From the NCBI GenBank assembly GCA_017397805.1, contig JAFQHW010000010.1, forward strand, positions 2,069-66,068: a DNA stretch of 64,000 bases. Reading direction: 5' to 3'. A program made the translations under genes and the position numbers. The stretch comes from Clostridia bacterium (lineage in GTDB: Bacteria > Bacillota > Clostridia > Oscillospirales > CAG-382). The notes beneath the pieces are model-generated. The model made no database searches. It was not told where the DNA came from and saw only the letters and a program-made list of their open reading frames with translations. Below, one piece after another: positions 1,241 through 61,673 of the stretch; position 1 is the stretch's first letter, and every line of letters starts with the position of its first letter.

Positions 1241-3163
<1,923 letters not shown>

Positions 3164-3172
3164 TTATATTCC

Positions 3173-3421
3173 TCACTTTTCCGTCCTTCCGCGGTTTTTA
3201 AGCACCTTTGCGGAAAGAGATGTTATATATATTCTGTCAGTATATTCGTTATCTGCCAGCACGAAGGCGTTTGGCAGGTCCGTACACAGATTGACCGCTT
3301 TGTATTCCTTTTGCATCCGTGCCAAAAAATTTTTGGTATCACCGGACTCGGTGGCTTTGTCTATATCAAAAATCCCTATTATCTCTCTGTCGCGAACCGT
3401 TTCATTCTTTCCCAAGTGCAT
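3173..3421 (-). CDS. remB: DUF370 / RemB (YaaB)-like small protein
   Basis: 82 aa. The N-terminus MHLGKNETVRDREIIGIFDID resembles B. subtilis YaaB/RemB, and it occupies the same recF-gyrB slot. Confidence 0.7.
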   Translation of the reverse strand: MHLGKNETVRDREIIGIFDIDKATESGDTKNFLARMQKEYKAVNLCTDLPNAFVLADNEYTDRIYITSLSAKVLKNRGRTEK

Positions 3422-12621: not shown

Positions 12622-12688
12622 AAGACTTGCGCCTCCCTTTATGGTTTGAGATAAGTTTTTGCAAAATTCTACAATTTTATGCACAAAA

Positions 12689-13019
12689 AATCCCAAGTGC
12701 TCGTTTTGAACACTTGGGATTTCAGACCGCTGACAAAGGCACAGAACACGAAAAAGAAAAAATACTACTATTTTAAGGTAGAAAATTCAGGGGAAATCCC
12801 TGAATTTTCTGCTTTTTATTATAGTTTTTCGTTCAAAACGAACCTCGGCTCACAGTACCGTTCGGGGTCCCCGTTACGAACGAAGTGAGTAATGGGGTGG
12901 CATAACAGCTATCGCCTCGGTTCGTCTTGTCTGCACTCTTTCTCAGCACTCTGCCAAGCTGATGACAAACTTTGTCATCAGCTTGAAATCCCAAGTGTTC
13001 GTTTTGAACACTTGGGATT
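12689..13019. repeat. MITE-like non-coding element, copy 1 (core 12723-12986) bracketed by two copies of a 33-bp terminator hairpin
   Basis: The hairpin aatcccaagtg(c/t)tcgttttgaacacttgggatt occurs at 12689-12721 and 12987-13019. The core is about 95% identical to 61412-61636 in its left 40 bp and right roughly 115 bp. No reading frame is conserved. Confidence 0.75.
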
Positions 13020-13035
13020 TTTGAATTGTTATATC

Positions 13036-29391: not shown

Positions 29392-29401
29392 GGAGAAATG
29401 C

Positions 29402-29507
29402 GTTGTGCTTGCACACAACGAAGCGATATAAATCCCTTACGGGATTTGCGATATGCCTGAAGGCGCGATATGCGTTACACGCGCGGTATGTTGCCTTCGG
29501 CAACGAG
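29402..29507. repeat. GCGATAT/hairpin array, copy a
   Basis: gttgtgcttgcacaac, then GCGATAT-aaatcccttacgggattt-GCGATAT-gcctgaaggc-GCGATAT-gcgttacacgc-GCGGTAT-gttgccttcggcaac. Confidence 0.8.
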
Positions 29508-30433: not shown

Positions 30434-30781
30434 ATGGCAAAATTTCAAGATAAACTGATTGCTGACGGCTATTGCGATAATCGCGGTGCAGGTTTTTGCG
30501 CAAACGCTACTAGATTGCCCGAAGGTGAATACGGCATAGTGGCTCTTTGTGTAAACGGAAGCACGCTAAATCTGTTTGATGTGGATATAAGAAGCAATAT
30601 TGGTGAATTGTTGTATTCGGTGGATTTGAAGCAAATTGAAAACCTGAAGATTCGGGCAGGAATCTTCAGACAGGTATTGAAGTTTGAATATAACGGTTCT
30701 ACCTATTCTTTTACGAACTTTATCGGCGTAAAGCCTGCGTTGAAAGTGATTGAAGAAGAGGCAAGCAACCGAGGAGAGTAG
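30434..30781 (+). CDS. Hypothetical protein (possibly bacterial PH-like fold)
   Basis: 115-aa ORF with a GGAGG RBS. No motif that I recognise with confidence. Confidence 0.5.
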   Translation: MAKFQDKLIADGYCDNRGAGFCANATRLPEGEYGIVALCVNGSTLNLFDVDIRSNIGELLYSVDLKQIENLKIRAGIFRQVLKFEYNGSTYSFTNFIGVKPALKVIEEEASNRGE

Positions 30782-30784
30782 TGT

Positions 30785-30905
30785 TCTTTAGAACCCTGCT
30801 CGACGATATAAATCTCTTGCGGGATTTGCGATATGCCTGACGGCGTGATATGCGTTACACGCGCGATATGTTGCTTTACGGCATCGCGAAGCGATATGTT
30901 GCTGA
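30785..30905. repeat. GCGATAT/hairpin array, copy b
   Basis: ...cGATATAaatctcttgcgggattt-GCGATAT-gcctgacggc-GTGATAT-gcgttacacgc-GCGATAT-gttgctttacggcatc-GCGAAGCGATAT... Confidence 0.8.
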
Positions 30906-31794: not shown

Positions 31795-31932
31795 ACCAAC
31801 GAAGCGATATAAATCCCCTATGAGCAGGGTTATTTAGAACCCTGCTCGGCGATATAAATCCCTTACGGGATTTGCGATATGCCTGAAGGCGCGATATGCG
31901 TTACACGCGCGCTATGTTGTCTTCGGCAACGA
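31795..31932. repeat. GCGATAT/hairpin array, copy c
   Basis: caacgaaGCGATAT-aaatcccc..gagcagggttatttagaaccctgctc-gGCGATAT-aaatcccttacgggattt-GCGATAT-gcctgaaggc-GCGATAT-gcgttacacgc-GCGCTAT-gttgtcttcggcaac. Confidence 0.8.
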
Positions 31933-41072: not shown

Positions 41073-42210
41073 GGGCATCGCCCTTGACATAGGTACTACC
41101 AATATAGTCGCCGCCCTTATTTCGGGCGGCGATTCCATAGAAGGGGAAATAAGTCCCACTTATAGAGTAACTAATTGCCAAAATATTTACGCACCCGACC
41201 TTATCGGGCGCATCTCCGCGGCGGAGAAGGATTATAAGGCGCTTAGAGAAGCCCTTGTGTTTTCCGTAAACTGCGCCGTATCGGAGATATGCGCGGTGGC
41301 AGGTGTTTTTGCCGACGAGCTTTACACCGTGGCGGTGGGCAACAGCCTTATGTCCTGCTTTTTTGCGGGTCTGCCCGTGGACGGACTCGGCAAAAGTCCC
41401 TACACCGCCCCTTCACGCTTCGGTAAGGAGTACGAGATTGCAGGCTATATAGGCGGCAAAGCCTATATCGCACCCATAATCGGCAGCTTTGTCGGCGGTG
41501 ACGTTTCCGCAGGCATTTACCGTTTTGCCCGTGATCGGGACGGGGTTCTGTTTATAGATGCAGGCACCAACGGTGAGGTTTACGGTTGTTACGGCGGCAG
41601 GCGCTTGGCTTGTTCCGCGGCGGCGGGCCCCGCCCTTGAGGTGGGTGTGGGCGACGTGCCCTTCCATCAGCGTGGGATAGATGCCGTCCGTACGGAGGGT
41701 GCCATCGTGTCCCATACCGTAGGCGGTGAGCTGCCGCAAGGCTTGGCGGGAAGCGGTGTTATTGAGCTGATTTCCCTCCTTTTGGGCAAGGAATGCGACG
41801 AAAGAGGGAAAATTGAGGGAGGAAAAGTCACCCTTCAGGGCGGATTTGAATTTACGGAGGAGCACGTGTGCCGGTTCCAGCTGGCAAAGGCGGCGCTGGC
41901 GGCGGCTACGCTTTCCGTTATGAGAGGACTTAAAATGCCGCCCAATGCCCTTAAAAAGCTTTACGTGGCAGGGGCGATAGGCTCTGCCGTAAGCGAGGAT
42001 GCCCTTATAAGAACGGGCATAATCCCCGCGTTTGCCAAAGGGAAGACGGAGTTTGTAGGAAATTCCGCTTTGCAAGGCAGTGTTTTGTTGACGGAGGAAA
42101 AAGCAAGGCAGGAAATAATGGCGCTGGTTTCGGCCACTTCGGTGCTCCCCTTGGAAAAAAGCGAGTATTTTAAGGAGCGTTTCGCAGAGGAGTTGTTTTT
42201 CTATGAGTAA
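41059..42210 (+). CDS. ASKHA-fold ATPase-like protein (DUF4445 / RACo C-terminal-domain-like) lacking the usual ferredoxin domain
   Basis: The start MKKYKGIALDIGTTNIVAAL overlaps the rnfB end by 14 nt. Actin-like phosphate motifs DIGTTN and IDAGTNGE. Confidence 0.6.
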   Translation: MKKYKGIALDIGTTNIVAALISGGDSIEGEISPTYRVTNCQNIYAPDLIGRISAAEKDYKALREALVFSVNCAVSEICAVAGVFADELYTVAVGNSLMSCFFAGLPVDGLGKSPYTAPSRFGKEYEIAGYIGGKAYIAPIIGSFVGGDVSAGIYRFARDRDGVLFIDAGTNGEVYGCYGGRRLACSAAAGPALEVGVGDVPFHQRGIDAVRTEGAIVSHTVGGELPQGLAGSGVIELISLLLGKECDERGKIEGGKVTLQGGFEFTEEHVCRFQLAKAALAAATLSVMRGLKMPPNALKKLYVAGAIGSAVSEDALIRTGIIPAFAKGKTEFVGNSALQGSVLLTEEKARQEIMALVSATSVLPLEKSEYFKERFAEELFFYE

Positions 42211-43555
42211 AAAGGAATGGCGCTTTGAAGGCGCGTTTACTGATATAAGTGATAAAGGCTTCGGCGTGTGCCGCGCTCCCGACGGGCGCACTGCCTTCGT
42301 TGCCGATGCCTTGACGGGTGAGGAAGGTACCGTTAAGGTCATTAAGGAATATAAAAATTACGTTATAGGGAAAATGGAGGAGCTGAAGGTTGCTTCCCCC
42401 CATCGAATCCAACCGGACTGCACCGTCTTTCGCCGTTGCGGCGGTTGTATCTACCGCCATTTGGACTACCAAGCCGAGCTTGAGTACAAGCGCAAGGGCG
42501 TTGAGGAGGTTCTAAAGCGAGTGGGAGGTGTTTCCGTTTCCGTGCCCATGCCTTTAAGCGGAAAGGAAAAAGAGTACCGCAACAAGCTTCTTTTGCCCGT
42601 GGGCAAGCGTGACGGTGAGCTTGTCTGCGGTTTTTACGCTCCTCACAGCCACAGTATCATCCCTTGTGATAAGTGTCTTCTGCACACCGATGATTTTTCA
42701 CAGATAAGCGCGGGCCTTTTGCAATTGCTGAAGGGCAAAAACCCTTACGATGAGGCCACGGGCAAGGGACTGCTTCGCCATATATATCTGCGACGCAACG
42801 GCAAGGGCGAGTTTTGCGTTACCGTCATAGTTAACGGCAAGCGCCTACCCTCCGCAGAAGAAACGGCAGAGCTGTTGATGGCACGTTTTCCGCAGGTTAA
42901 AAGCTTCTACGTTAACCTCAACGTTTCCCGCACCAATAACGTAACGGGTCCCGATTGGGTACATATAAAGGGTGAAAAACTGCTTACCCAAGAGCTTTTG
43001 GGCAAGACCTTCAAGATGTCGCCCGCGGCTTTCTTCCAGGTCAATACGGAAATGACGGAAAAGCTTTACGCAACTGCCGCTGAAATGGCGGATATTCGGA
43101 AGGGAGAAACCGTTTTCGATATGTATTGCGGTATCGGCACCGTGGGACTTTGTCTGTGTCCCGACGGTGTGGAGCTCTGCGGCGTGGAGATAGTGCCCGC
43201 CGCCATAGAAAACGCAAGGCAAAACGCCATCCTTAACGGCAGGAGCGAAAAGGACACGAAGTTTTTCGCTTGCGATGCCGCCGAGGGGTTTGAACGGTGC
43301 TACAATGCCTTCGGTAAAAAACCCACCACGGTATTGCTTGACCCGCCCAGAGCGGGACTTGCCCCCTCACTTACGGAAACTTTGATAAAAGAGCGTCCCG
43401 AAAAGATCGTGTATATTTCCTGCAACCCCGCCACCTTGGCGCGTGACGTGGCACTGCTTAAAGACGGTGGATATAGCTTTGCGGATATTGCTACGGTGGA
43501 TATGTTCCCCCGTACCGGGCATGTTGAATCTATTGTCTGCTTGCGCAGACGATAG
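42203..43555 (+). CDS. rlmD: 23S rRNA (uracil-C5)-methyltransferase, RumA/RlmD family
   Basis: 450 aa. TRAM domain, Fe-S cysteines C..FRRCGGC, SAM motif DMYCGIGT, and catalytic ISCNP. Confidence 0.85.
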   Translation: MSKKEWRFEGAFTDISDKGFGVCRAPDGRTAFVADALTGEEGTVKVIKEYKNYVIGKMEELKVASPHRIQPDCTVFRRCGGCIYRHLDYQAELEYKRKGVEEVLKRVGGVSVSVPMPLSGKEKEYRNKLLLPVGKRDGELVCGFYAPHSHSIIPCDKCLLHTDDFSQISAGLLQLLKGKNPYDEATGKGLLRHIYLRRNGKGEFCVTVIVNGKRLPSAEETAELLMARFPQVKSFYVNLNVSRTNNVTGPDWVHIKGEKLLTQELLGKTFKMSPAAFFQVNTEMTEKLYATAAEMADIRKGETVFDMYCGIGTVGLCLCPDGVELCGVEIVPAAIENARQNAILNGRSEKDTKFFACDAAEGFERCYNAFGKKPTTVLLDPPRAGLAPSLTETLIKERPEKIVYISCNPATLARDVALLKDGGYSFADIATVDMFPRTGHVESIVCLRRR

Positions 43556-43727
43556 ATTCAACAATGAATTGCGCCGACGCATGAATTGGCTTTGCCATGA
43601 TTTGCCTGACGGCATGAATTGCGCCTATGGGCGCATAAAGGATAAGGCGCAATTCAATTCATGGAGCGAAGCGAGAAATCATGATGTATCGGCATCAATT
43701 CACGACACGTAGTGTCAATTCATAAAA
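43555..43727. repeat. ATGAATT/hairpin array (4 forward 7-mers, then 3 reverse-complement 7-mers); first 84 bp is direct-repeat copy A
   Basis: ATGAATT-gcgccgacgc-ATGAATT-ggctttgcc-ATGATTT-gcctgacggc-ATGAATT-gcgcctatgggcgc ... AATTCAATTCAT ... AATTCA ... AATTCAT. It ends right at the RBS of the four-helix-bundle gene. Confidence 0.8.
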
Positions 43728-43738
43728 CGGAGGTTTTT

Positions 43739-44110
43739 ATGAAACAAAATGTTTTAATTGATATATCTAAGCAATTTGCTGTTGAAATCGTAAATCTTTG
43801 TACGGAAATCAAAGATAACAGAAAAAGCAATGTACTGCTGAATCAGCTTTTGCGTAGCGGAACAAGTATTGGGGCAAATATACACGAAGCCAATTATGCA
43901 GCAAGCAAGGCTGATTTTATCAACAAATTTCAGATTGCTTTGAAAGAATGTTATGAAACCGACTATTGGTTGGAGCTCTTTAAGGACACTAACATGATCA
44001 CACAGAACGAATATGATGCGCTGTTTCCTCAATGCAGCAAAATACGAAAGCTTTTGATAGCTTCTATAACTACCGCAAAACAAAATACAGGGGAGAAAAA
44101 AGCTGAATGA
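43739..44110 (+). CDS. Four-helix-bundle protein (23S rRNA intervening-sequence protein family, PF05635-like)
   Basis: MKQNVLIDISKQFAVEIVNL...LLRSGTSIGANIHEANYAASKADFINKFQIALKECYETDYWLEL. GGAGG RBS. The track start 43712 lies within the repeat. Confidence 0.85.
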   Translation: MKQNVLIDISKQFAVEIVNLCTEIKDNRKSNVLLNQLLRSGTSIGANIHEANYAASKADFINKFQIALKECYETDYWLELFKDTNMITQNEYDALFPQCSKIRKLLIASITTAKQNTGEKKAE

Positions 44111-44183
44111 TGACATCGAAAAGCTATATACCCAGTTGTATGGCGAGTATCCCGTTGAATCCGTCGTTTTGTTAAAACGAACG

Positions 44184-44267
44184 GATTCAACAACAAATTG
44201 CGCCGACGCATGAATTGGCTTTGCCATGATTTGCCTGACGGCATGAATTGCGCCTATGGGCGCATAA
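44184..44267. repeat. ATGAATT/hairpin array, 84-bp direct-repeat copy B
   Basis: Nearly identical to 43555-43638, differing only in caatgaatt versus caacaaatt near the 5' end. Confidence 0.85.
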
Positions 44268-44373
44268 GCGGCGCAGTGGTGCAACGGTTCAACCTGCCCA
44301 TAGTTTTAAGGCTTATGAATAGGCTTGACGGCCGTCGATATGTCCCTTCGGGACGTGAAAAAGGAGTAGAAAA

Positions 44374-61373: not shown

Positions 61374-61389
61374 TCCATAAAAAAGCAAA

Positions 61390-61658
61390 AACTGCAGTTC
61401 ACACTGCAGTTCAGACCACTGACAAAGGCACAGAGCACGAAAAAGAAAACAAACAAATATAATGAAGTAGAAAAATAAGGGGGCAAGCCTCCTTATTTTT
61501 CTGCATTTTGTTATATTTTTTCGTTCAAAACGAACCTCGGCTTGCAGTACTCAGTACAGCTATCGCCTCGGTTCGTCTTGTCTGCGCTCTTTCTCAGCAC
61601 TCTGCCAAGCTGATGACAAGGCTTGTCATCAGCTTGAACTGCAGTTCACACTGCAGTT
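61390..61658. repeat. MITE-like non-coding element, copy 2 (core 61412-61636) bracketed by two copies of a 22-bp terminator hairpin
   Basis: aactgcagttcacactgcagtt occurs at 61390-61411 and 61637-61658, perfectly identical. The core is homologous to 12723-12986. Confidence 0.75.
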
Positions 61659-61673
61659 TTTTATCTTTACTTT

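Follow-up and report, generated by a model that had tools for sequence, protein, structure and literature searches.

Within a 64,000-nucleotide (nt) stretch of contig JAFQHW010000010.1 from a Clostridia bacterium of the CAG-382 lineage, referred to here as the window, a small gene encoding a four-helix-bundle (4HB) protein of 123 amino acids lies on the + strand at 43739-44110, behind an rlmD-family 23S rRNA (uracil-5) methyltransferase gene (42203-43555, +; PF05958, E=2.9e-21). Between the two genes is an array of short hairpins separated by the heptamer ATGAATT, and a second, partial array follows the 4HB gene. The upstream array, at 43522-43723, is a single conserved element of approximately 200 nt and belongs to a family of structured repeats that is present in many copies.

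The element opens with a long hairpin, P0 (43522-43563, +), whose 19-nt arms are 95% complementary and whose outer stem is formed by GTTGAATC and GATTCAAC. The 5' arm of P0 is rlmD coding sequence, such that the hairpin encodes the last 11 codons of the gene (HVESIVCLRRR) together with its stop. P0 is followed by the 5' domain, or S array (copy 1, 43564-43638, +), in which ATGAATT (43564), ATGAATT (43581), ATGATTT (43597) and ATGAATT (43614) alternate with the mini-hairpins H1 (43571-43580), H2 (43588-43596), H3 (43604-43613) and H4 (43621-43634), all on the + strand, and which ends in ATAA. A linker (43639-43655, +) carries the 3' strand of a long-range helix, P1, in which GGCGCAATTCA (43646-43656) pairs with TGAATTGCGCC (43565-43575), and leads into an invariant 27-nt core, AATTCATGGAGCGAAGCGAGAAATCAT (43656-43682, +), that includes a GCGAAGC mini-hairpin. 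The 3' domain (43683-43723, +) consists of H5 (43683-43696), AATTCAC, H6 (43704-43716) and AATTCAT. Reverse heptamers number four rather than the three counted in the original prediction (AATTCAT at 43656, AAATCAT at 43676, AATTCAC at 43697 and AATTCAT at 43717), and 5 nt separate the last of them from the ribosome-binding site GGAGG (43729-43733). Chance is a poor account of these patterns: ATGAATTGCGCC, allowing at most one mismatch, occurs four times where 0.39 occurrences are expected, a count reached in 0 of 100 shuffles, and the + strand of 43518-43745 folds with z = -8.6 relative to shuffled sequence.

Comparison across loci demonstrates that the same layout is kept around the core, namely P0, four units, linker, core and two mini-hairpins. 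P0 is long and locus-specific, each of the four units comprises (A/G)TGAATT and a mini-hairpin, the linker ends in GCAATTC, and AATTCAT or AAATCAT stands between the two final mini-hairpins. Among 69 unique copies, pairing over the first three to four stem pairs of each mini-hairpin is 91-100%, and many of these positions show three or four kinds of pair. P1, formed when heptamer 1 and the 5' arm of H1 pair with the linker end, likewise covaries between loci (GCAACC/GGTTGC, GCGCC/GGCGC, GCCGTT/AACGGC and GCTCC/GGAGC), with 208 of 276 cells at its variable positions paired, whereas shuffles average 132 and reach at most 165. Because one strand is common to both, H1 and P1 are mutually exclusive. 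RNAalifold independently finds P1, H2-H6 and the core stem, yielding a structure in which 96.6% of cells are paired (81.1% in shuffles), 123 cells carry double changes (35.7 in shuffles) and the covariation score is 0.387 (0.096 in shuffles), a value reached by 0 of 500 shuffles. The stems of the element are thus shown to covary strongly. In rlmD-linked P0 hairpins constancy extends to the nucleotide level, as six species that are unrelated upstream are identical from GTTGAATC onward.

As originally described, the 4HB gene is bracketed by a direct repeat that starts on the rlmD stop. Positions 43555-43638 and 44184-44267 are identical at 82 of 84 sites with a spacing of 629 nt, copy 1 opens on the final base of the stop codon (TAG, 43553-43555), and both mismatches fall within the first heptamer (ATGAATT vs ACAAATT). 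The hairpin reported behind the gene is also present, at 44154-44191 (+); this second P0-type hairpin, designated hp2, has the outer stem of P0 (GTTGAATC/GATTCAAC) and a different, compensated inner stem. Since both long hairpins open with GTTGAATC and close with GATTCAAC, the repeat truly begins at GTTGAATC (43525 and 44154) and is approximately 114 nt in length, with a divergent middle in which the inner hairpin stem is unlike between the copies and base-paired in both. Joined to rlmD, hp2 would translate as VESVVLLKRTDSTTNCADA followed by a stop, resembling the rlmD-linked P0 of other species (GTTGAATCTGTCGTTTGTCTCAAACGACAGATTCAAC), and for this reason it has the appearance of an rlmD 3' end that has been displaced. 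The S array that follows (copy 2, 44192-44267, +) is without core or 3' domain and has ACAAATT at 44193, ATGAATT at 44210, ATGATTT at 44226 and ATGAATT at 44243. It shows a P1-like closure (UGCGCCG/CGGCGCA) that is possibly coincidental, as solo arrays at other loci are without such closure. Immediately beyond, alignment by eye with locus L004 identifies 44275-44330 (+) as a remnant of the C-terminus of a membrane-protein gene, found before the GNAT gene in relatives; the remnant marks the right edge of a replaced block. Directly upstream of the GNAT gene, a degenerate array-like stretch (GTCGATAT GTCCCTTCGGGAC GTGAAAA) at 44301-44366 gives a 20.3-bit match to the Gut-1 RNA motif discussed below.

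The protein encoded within this bracket is an unambiguous member of a widespread family, matching PF05635 (E=1.7e-26; 92.9 bits, cut-off 33.8), TIGR02436 (E=2e-30; 105.2 bits, cut-off 24) and the structure PDB 2RLD (E=4e-30), the entry for which has five chains. The family motif RxxxSxxxNxxE reads RSGTSIGANIHE in the window's protein. A longer conserved motif, GxxRxxxSxxxNxxE, has been described for PF05635-type proteins, of which the relative Xcc0516 is pentameric (PMC3936711); in the translated window gene this motif corresponds to LLRSGTSIGANIHE, accepted here as a match with the leading G absent. The same family includes Avd, the accessory protein of diversity-generating retroelements (DGRs).

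Relatives of the 4HB gene occur at no fewer than 579 loci in the genome collection, and the closest 80 (77-87% identical) were examined, 78 of which have enough upstream sequence to judge. The original prediction held that the tie between gene and array could be put to the test by asking whether other 4HB genes are preceded by arrays, and nearly all of these 78 loci bear three to four forward and three to four or more reverse heptamers within the 260 nt upstream, indicating that the tie to forward/reverse heptamer arrays is not random. At 52 of the 78, an rlmD-family gene ends approximately 150-400 nt (mostly 180-220 nt) upstream of the 4HB gene. One further locus departs from this arrangement: at L067, a 4HB gene (77% identical) lies at approximately 1005-1441, beyond the other side of the core and reading away from it, with forward-type units preceding it on its own strand. 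Viewed from the element, the association is asymmetric. Among 121 core copies, 21-25 (about 20%) have a same-strand 4HB gene directly downstream, 15 follow an rlmD-family gene, and 12 have both neighbors, so that the forward and reverse arrays are not, as had been proposed, a structure built around the 4HB gene; some 80% of copies are without one.

Comparison of the 49 rlmD-linked loci speaks to the age of the gene. Median protein identity is 0.90 for 4HB and 0.52 for RlmD, while identity at four-fold synonymous sites is 0.42 for 4HB and 0.35 for rlmD. Recent horizontal transfer of the element together with the 4HB gene was considered on the basis of 80-92% nucleotide identity, as compared to 56-71% for rlmD, and was rejected because four-fold sites are near saturation in both genes. 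A protein 0.90 identical with synonymous sites near saturation instead indicates an old gene, and both the 4HB protein and the core are shown to be under very strong purifying selection. The portrayal of 4HB as a fast-moving selfish gene does not survive this comparison.

The repeat bracket itself is not peculiar to the window, a recurrence that strengthens the original description of it. In about seven other species a forward array lies upstream of the 4HB gene and again 10-100 nt past its stop: L189 (76 nt, 93% identical), L239 (75 nt, 100%), L241 (41 nt, 98%), L245 (108 nt, 100%, with a TATAAT box and P0 included and a next gene that resembles pyruvate kinase by eye), L264 (83 nt, 98.8%), L266 (80 nt, 98.75%), and L094/L203 (127 nt, 99%), where a truncated 4HB start comes after a full tandem second element. 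On its right-hand side the repeat always stops directly after H4 and CAT(T/A). In both L239 and the window the two P0 hairpins are unrelated beside arrays that are 98-100% identical, which argues against simple tandem duplication.

Strain comparison places the left edge of the variable region with precision. Loci L268 and L269, from a conspecific strain, match the window at 98.3% identity across the 2,092 nt that end at 43520 and diverge exactly at the HVES codons of rlmD, after which they carry an element with AGTGAAGTT-type heptamers, a motif of approximately 70 nt and another gene; no 4HB gene is found within the 420 nt available after rlmD (element at approximately 2085-2400). A conspecific RlmD allele, P0001, is 99% identical and ends in a different tail, VESVVCLTRRLDN. 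The HVES codons, where P0 begins, are a recombination boundary. The region from approximately 43521 to approximately 44270 is thus a strain-variable replacement, with the start of P0 as its left edge. The original prediction proposed asking whether related strains have or lack the cassette and whether a single 84-nt copy marks an empty site; polymorphism between strains is observed, while no such site was found and the conspecific strain carries a different element instead. The closest species-level relatives (72-78% RlmD identity) have neither element nor 4HB gene; their RlmD tail is longer, and different small genes occupy the interval from rlmD to the GNAT orthologue, which lies 1.0-2.8 kb after rlmD in L002-L004 and L006. 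Every contig with the exact RlmD, 4HB or GNAT protein carries the cassette. Logan contigs break at the repeat, with no joints seen, and the right-hand junction was not found in metagenome contigs.

Several observations at other loci concern the same position behind rlmD. In L133, L094 and L156, extra DNA lies between rlmD and the module of P0, element and 4HB gene, with junctions before P0 of the form ...ttgacc followed by CATGTYGA or ...accaaa followed by CAYGTYGA, a pattern that suggests repeated insertions at the codons of the HVE motif. In other species the rlmD-element-4HB module leads into a variable-gene array in which each gene is preceded by the approximately 70-nt motif, a hairpin TTT(T/C)GAGC(A/G)AAACTCGAAA and then GGTATAACATATCGAAAGGAG. 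Copies of this motif number four in L152, three in L225 and two each in L090 and L174, with another in L268 (2365-2420), and L152 and L174 have one cargo gene in common, placed differently in each. The window itself has no copy of the motif. The gene arrays that it punctuates look like cassette arrays, with no integrase in view.

The distribution of the element extends well beyond rlmD. The exact 27-nt core occurs in more than 119 stretches of species-representative genome contigs, and its carriers are dozens of metagenome-assembled genomes (MAGs) of uncultured animal-gut Clostridia with labels including Oscillospiraceae, Faecousia, Christensenellaceae and Lachnospiraceae. Several copies are present per genome, with seven in one MAG (contigs JAFQCY01), and in four gut metagenomes word depth over the core is 190-560x as compared to 6-14x in the flanks. 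Copies differ in how many hairpin units they have, and the units are shuffled among them. The core has no match in the viral contigs of IMG/VR, no target-site duplication or terminal inverted repeat pattern was found for whole elements, and a PADLOC search gave no meaningful match. A scan of the whole window at Rfam gathering thresholds returned two tRNAs only, the element reaching the threshold of no family.

The closest catalogued relative is Gut-1 (RF01706), a candidate noncoding RNA reported only from human-gut sequence, with no function given, and consisting of hairpins separated by GUGAAAU, with a long hairpin in front in the seed alignment (Weinberg et al., 2010; PMC2864571). The window's element has the Gut-1 layout, in which at least three short hairpins split by a constant heptamer follow a longer hairpin, and the two are further alike in stem covariation and in their occurrence in sequences of gut Clostridia type. 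They differ in the heptamer, GUGAAAU as compared to AUGAAUU in the window, and in extent, since the published motif corresponds to the 5' array only and its description includes neither P1, the core and the reverse array nor any association with PF05635. The ATGAATT element of the window gives no match to the Gut-1 covariance model, a test shown to work by the scores obtained at locus L270. This locus, a 73.8-kb IMG/VR contig (JGI sample 3300031555) predicted to be viral, holds a 4HB gene 54% identical to that of the window and, directly upstream of it, two tandem elements (2557-3354) with forward GTGAAAT and reverse ATTTCAC linkers. Its forward arrays are bona fide Gut-1 (72.9 and 69.4 bits; gathering score 50), its reverse arrays match Gut-1 on the other strand at 37-38 bits, and these Gut-1 copies stand in the same larger forward/reverse layout before a 4HB gene as the window's element. 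A distant homologue thus shows the layout with a different heptamer. A scan for three spaced GTGAAAT heptamers found 127 arrays, chance matches in other phyla included; in 41 of these at least two ATTTCAC follow within 170 nt, and in five of the 41 a 4HB gene 70-94% identical to that of L270 lies 100-157 nt past the forward array. Taken together, the element is an uncatalogued, widespread structured repeat and a sister of the Gut-1 RNA motif. The architecture is common to both heptamer families, and each appears, from these gene and array comparisons, to have its own 4HB subfamily.

Additional heptamer families are evident. Behind rlmD in the conspecific strain, a third type has four forward AGTGAAGTT and four reverse AACTTCACT heptamers with mini-hairpins, so that in three families the forward linker is complementary to the reverse one (ATGAATT/AATTCAT, AGTGAAGTT/AACTTCACT and GTGAAAT/ATTTCAC). 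The window itself contains three GCGATAT arrays (29396-29493, 30776-30873 and 31822-31919), 76-91% identical to one another, each of which follows a stop codon (of tpiA, a 115-amino-acid open reading frame and a dockerin protein, respectively) and a long hairpin. All three lack a reverse half, the mini-hairpin GCCTGACGGC is common to them and the ATGAATT array, and against Gut-1 they reach 27.7, 20.1 and 19.2 bits, below the gathering score of 50. Two other candidate assignments were rejected. Clostridiales-1 RNA (RF01699) matches 43511-43668 at 20.0 bits against a gathering score of 48, and its consensus does not contain the heptamer layout. Carriage by phage was set aside given the absence of the core from IMG/VR; a Gut-1-type version does occur on one viral-predicted contig.

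Several features concern whether the element acts as RNA or DNA. In many stand-alone copies P0 is immediately preceded by a TATAAT box, and a terminator-like hairpin follows the element. The gene upstream of the element is co-oriented with it in 49 of 64 loci, at a median gap of approximately 12 nt, while in the same comparison the downstream gene is randomly oriented. Word depth over the element family is 50-340 in four gut metatranscriptome assemblies, with zero for the unique flanks of L092, and no RNA runs holding the window's unique 4HB stretch were found. Co-orientation, TATAAT boxes and metatranscriptome depth together favor transcription of the + strand. In the window, no consensus promoter or terminator is seen on the + strand from rlmD to the GNAT gene, so that the element, if transcribed there, is probably part of an rlmD-4HB message.

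These data are best accommodated, at a confidence that we would call moderate, by a model in which the element and the 4HB gene are partners: the gene encodes the cognate protein of the element family, and recombination at the arrays moves the cassette. Gene neighborhood and family co-variation suggest that the 4HB protein may bind some four heptamer linkers that the mini-hairpins would display side by side; solved relatives are pentameric, and the protein shares a family with Avd. The element copy before its own 4HB gene would then provide feedback control, and the dispersed copies would be the cellular targets of the protein, either as elements of 3' untranslated regions or small RNAs or as the corresponding DNA. 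The 84-nt repeat, in turn, would be a second 5' domain left by recombination between two array copies, an event that may have set the linker, core, 3' domain and 4HB gene between two S arrays and that, in the lineage of the window, would also have replaced the native rlmD tail and neighboring genes. Such recombination is supported by the recurrence of the bracket, its fixed right edge, the difference between P0 hairpins and the polymorphism between strains. The cassette may accordingly be gained and lost at arrays with no machinery of its own, such that the "mobile cassette" first proposed is supported in part, in the form of recombination at arrays, while the selfish gene is not, 4HB being old and conserved.

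Several points weigh against this partnership or narrow it. Binding of the arrays by the protein is proposed from gene neighborhood and family co-variation, and the large majority of element copies, as noted above, lie beside no 4HB gene. A pure heptamer-binding model does not call for the complementarity that forward and reverse linkers show in all three families. Since the 4HB gene of L067 lies across the core in the opposite orientation, a fixed role as 5' leader is not universal. The metatranscriptome signal could stem from copies in other genomes or from DNA carry-over. Mismatches within stems are rare and symmetric (7 G.U, 8 A.C and 13 other in approximately 570 pairs); this lack of tolerance for G.U is unusual for a constraint acting on + strand RNA only, and fits a constraint at the DNA level or on both strands. 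The 3' domain amounts to an array in inverted form, which also counts against a purely RNA-level constraint, and the GCGAAGC and GNA-loop mini-hairpins lie on the strand bearing the reverse linkers. Mini-hairpins of the GCGAAGC type are exceptionally stable in DNA. Finally, S copies that are 98% identical beside different P0 stems are not fully explained by the recombination models tried.

The main rival is a DNA-level system in which the arrays, as inverted sets of heptamers bound by protein and spaced by hairpins, would be mobile repeats spreading as DNA, akin to repetitive extragenic palindromic (REP) sequences and REPINs or to miniature inverted-repeat transposable elements (MITEs), the 4HB protein would be their single-copy, trans-acting maintainer or mover, as is the REP-associated tyrosine transposase (RAYT), and the 84-nt repeat would have arisen as a side effect of insertion within or beside an array. 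Complementary linkers, strictly Watson-Crick stems with no excess of G.U, and the placement of the mini-hairpins on the reverse-linker strand would all follow readily from it, as would the high copy number, the shuffled and variable hairpin units, the sharp edges of the repeat brackets, and a gene flanked by its own repeat family as RAYT genes are by REPs. We nonetheless judge it unlikely. PF05635 proteins are small helical bundles with no known nuclease or recombinase activity, and the core and rlmD-linked P0 are conserved across species saturated at synonymous sites, which points to long-term function rather than recent spread. The orientation bias of upstream genes, TATAAT boxes before P0 and terminator-like hairpins suggest transcription units; the absence of the core from viral contigs and of target-site duplications or terminal inverted repeats for whole elements likewise runs counter to a mobile repeat.

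Two further explanations carry less weight. The bracket could result from ordinary local rearrangement, with neither cassette behavior nor a special role for the repeat, by tandem duplication of the whole module (P0, S array, core, 3' domain and 4HB gene) and deletion in the second copy, or by gene conversion between neighboring arrays. The tandem second element and truncated 4HB start of L094/L203 speak for it, as does the similarity among the neighboring GCGATAT arrays of the window. This explanation is improbable, given that recent duplication would have copied P0 too, while the P0s differ strongly beside near-identical arrays; that the right edge is identical in seven independent loci at unrelated genomic sites; and that the whole block is replaced in a conspecific strain. 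Least probable by far is the model of the original prediction, in which an autonomous selfish cassette would form, as transcript or single-stranded DNA, a segmented stem through nested pairing of forward and reverse heptamers, with hairpins as side branches. The heptamers are indeed complementary, at the level of the family as well as of the window, and the region folds far better than shuffled sequence. The nested stem nevertheless has zero compensatory cells in any heptamer pair, with measures equal to those of shuffles, and the sole informative column shows A.A mismatches, present at heptamer pair 3-b in 18 of 20 copies and at pair 1-d in 8 of 20, the ATGATTT/AAATCAT match of the window being an exception among copies. 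P1, moreover, uses heptamer 1 differently, and neither the age and conservation of 4HB nor the many elements without a gene suit such a cassette. The nested heptamer register is largely refuted.

The partnership of element and protein can also be set beside systems already known. REP sequences and bacterial interspersed mosaic elements (BIMEs) with their RAYTs, and the BOX elements of pneumococci, are multi-copy intergenic palindromic units at gene 3' ends, modular and clustered in direct or inverted order. The present family resembles them in its multi-copy palindromic units, its modular shuffling and the presence of one protein gene within its own repeat family. It differs in that linkers are constant and hairpins variable, the reverse of REPs, in its 27-nt core, which is invariant across species, and in that the protein is a four-helix bundle rather than a Y1 transposase; with variable hairpins, constant linkers and a PF05635 gene as the flanked gene, the family does not belong among REP/REPIN systems with RAYTs, which are marked by a conserved hairpin sequence beside a fixed tetranucleotide and by repeats on both sides of a Y1 transposase gene. 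Open reading frames in 23S rRNA intervening sequences and Avd offer the likeness of a PF05635 gene adjoining a highly structured nucleic acid, although here the partner is a dispersed heptamer-hairpin array. The Rfam scan of the whole window gives no rRNA, which excludes an intervening sequence, and among called genes (those within approximately 3 kb either side of 4HB encode Rnf subunits, RACo, RlmD, GNAT and YchF) no reverse transcriptase or template/variable repeats were seen beside the 4HB gene, no dedicated search for them having been run.

Integron gene cassettes are small genes bracketed by similar structured repeats (attC). The bracketed 4HB gene shares this feature, and the variable-gene arrays with the approximately 70-nt motif in other species extend the likeness, while the repeats of the window are hairpin arrays and not single imperfect palindromes. 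An integron/attC assignment was rejected, as P0 reads GTTGAAT...ATTCAAC, the opposite order to RYYYAAC...GTTRRRY; no integrase is present among the called genes of the loci inspected.

Elsewhere in the window, 12686-13022 and 61380-61668 are two copies of an approximately 300-nt element, 84-95% identical in pieces and bounded by 46-53-nt inverted repeats containing hairpins; these are the features at 12.7 and 61.4 kb to which the original prediction likened the cassette, and they share no sequence with the heptamer arrays. Four paralogous minus-strand genes lie at 13.4-19.0 kb with a spacing of approximately 1.4-1.9 kb (repeat families D1-D6, D9 and D10), and dockerin-type repeats are found at 30.1-31.2 kb; the paralogous genes and dockerin repeats are consistent with a fiber-degrading organism of Oscillospiraceae type.

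The analysis defines an abundant repeat of ruminant and other gut Clostridia, recognizable by its invariant 27-nt core and by the assembly breaks and depth spikes that accompany it, and marks the HVES codons of rlmD as a strain-level recombination boundary that elsewhere leads into a variable-gene array. More broadly, and more tentatively, PF05635 proteins and heptamer arrays, Gut-1 and its sisters among them, may constitute a two-component system in which the pentamer of each subfamily would read four to five copies of its own linker, and in which the arrays would act as recombination sites for exchange of the protein gene and further small genes, tied in many species to the rlmD 3' end. Bacteria very commonly encode PF05635/TIGR02436 proteins, whose role is known only for Avd in DGRs, and Gut-1 has been an orphan since 2010; the present data tie the two together. 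Should the two-component system prove real, it would provide a function for both a widespread uncharacterized protein family and an orphan RNA motif, and would suggest a reason for the presence of 4HB relatives within rRNA intervening sequences and DGRs.

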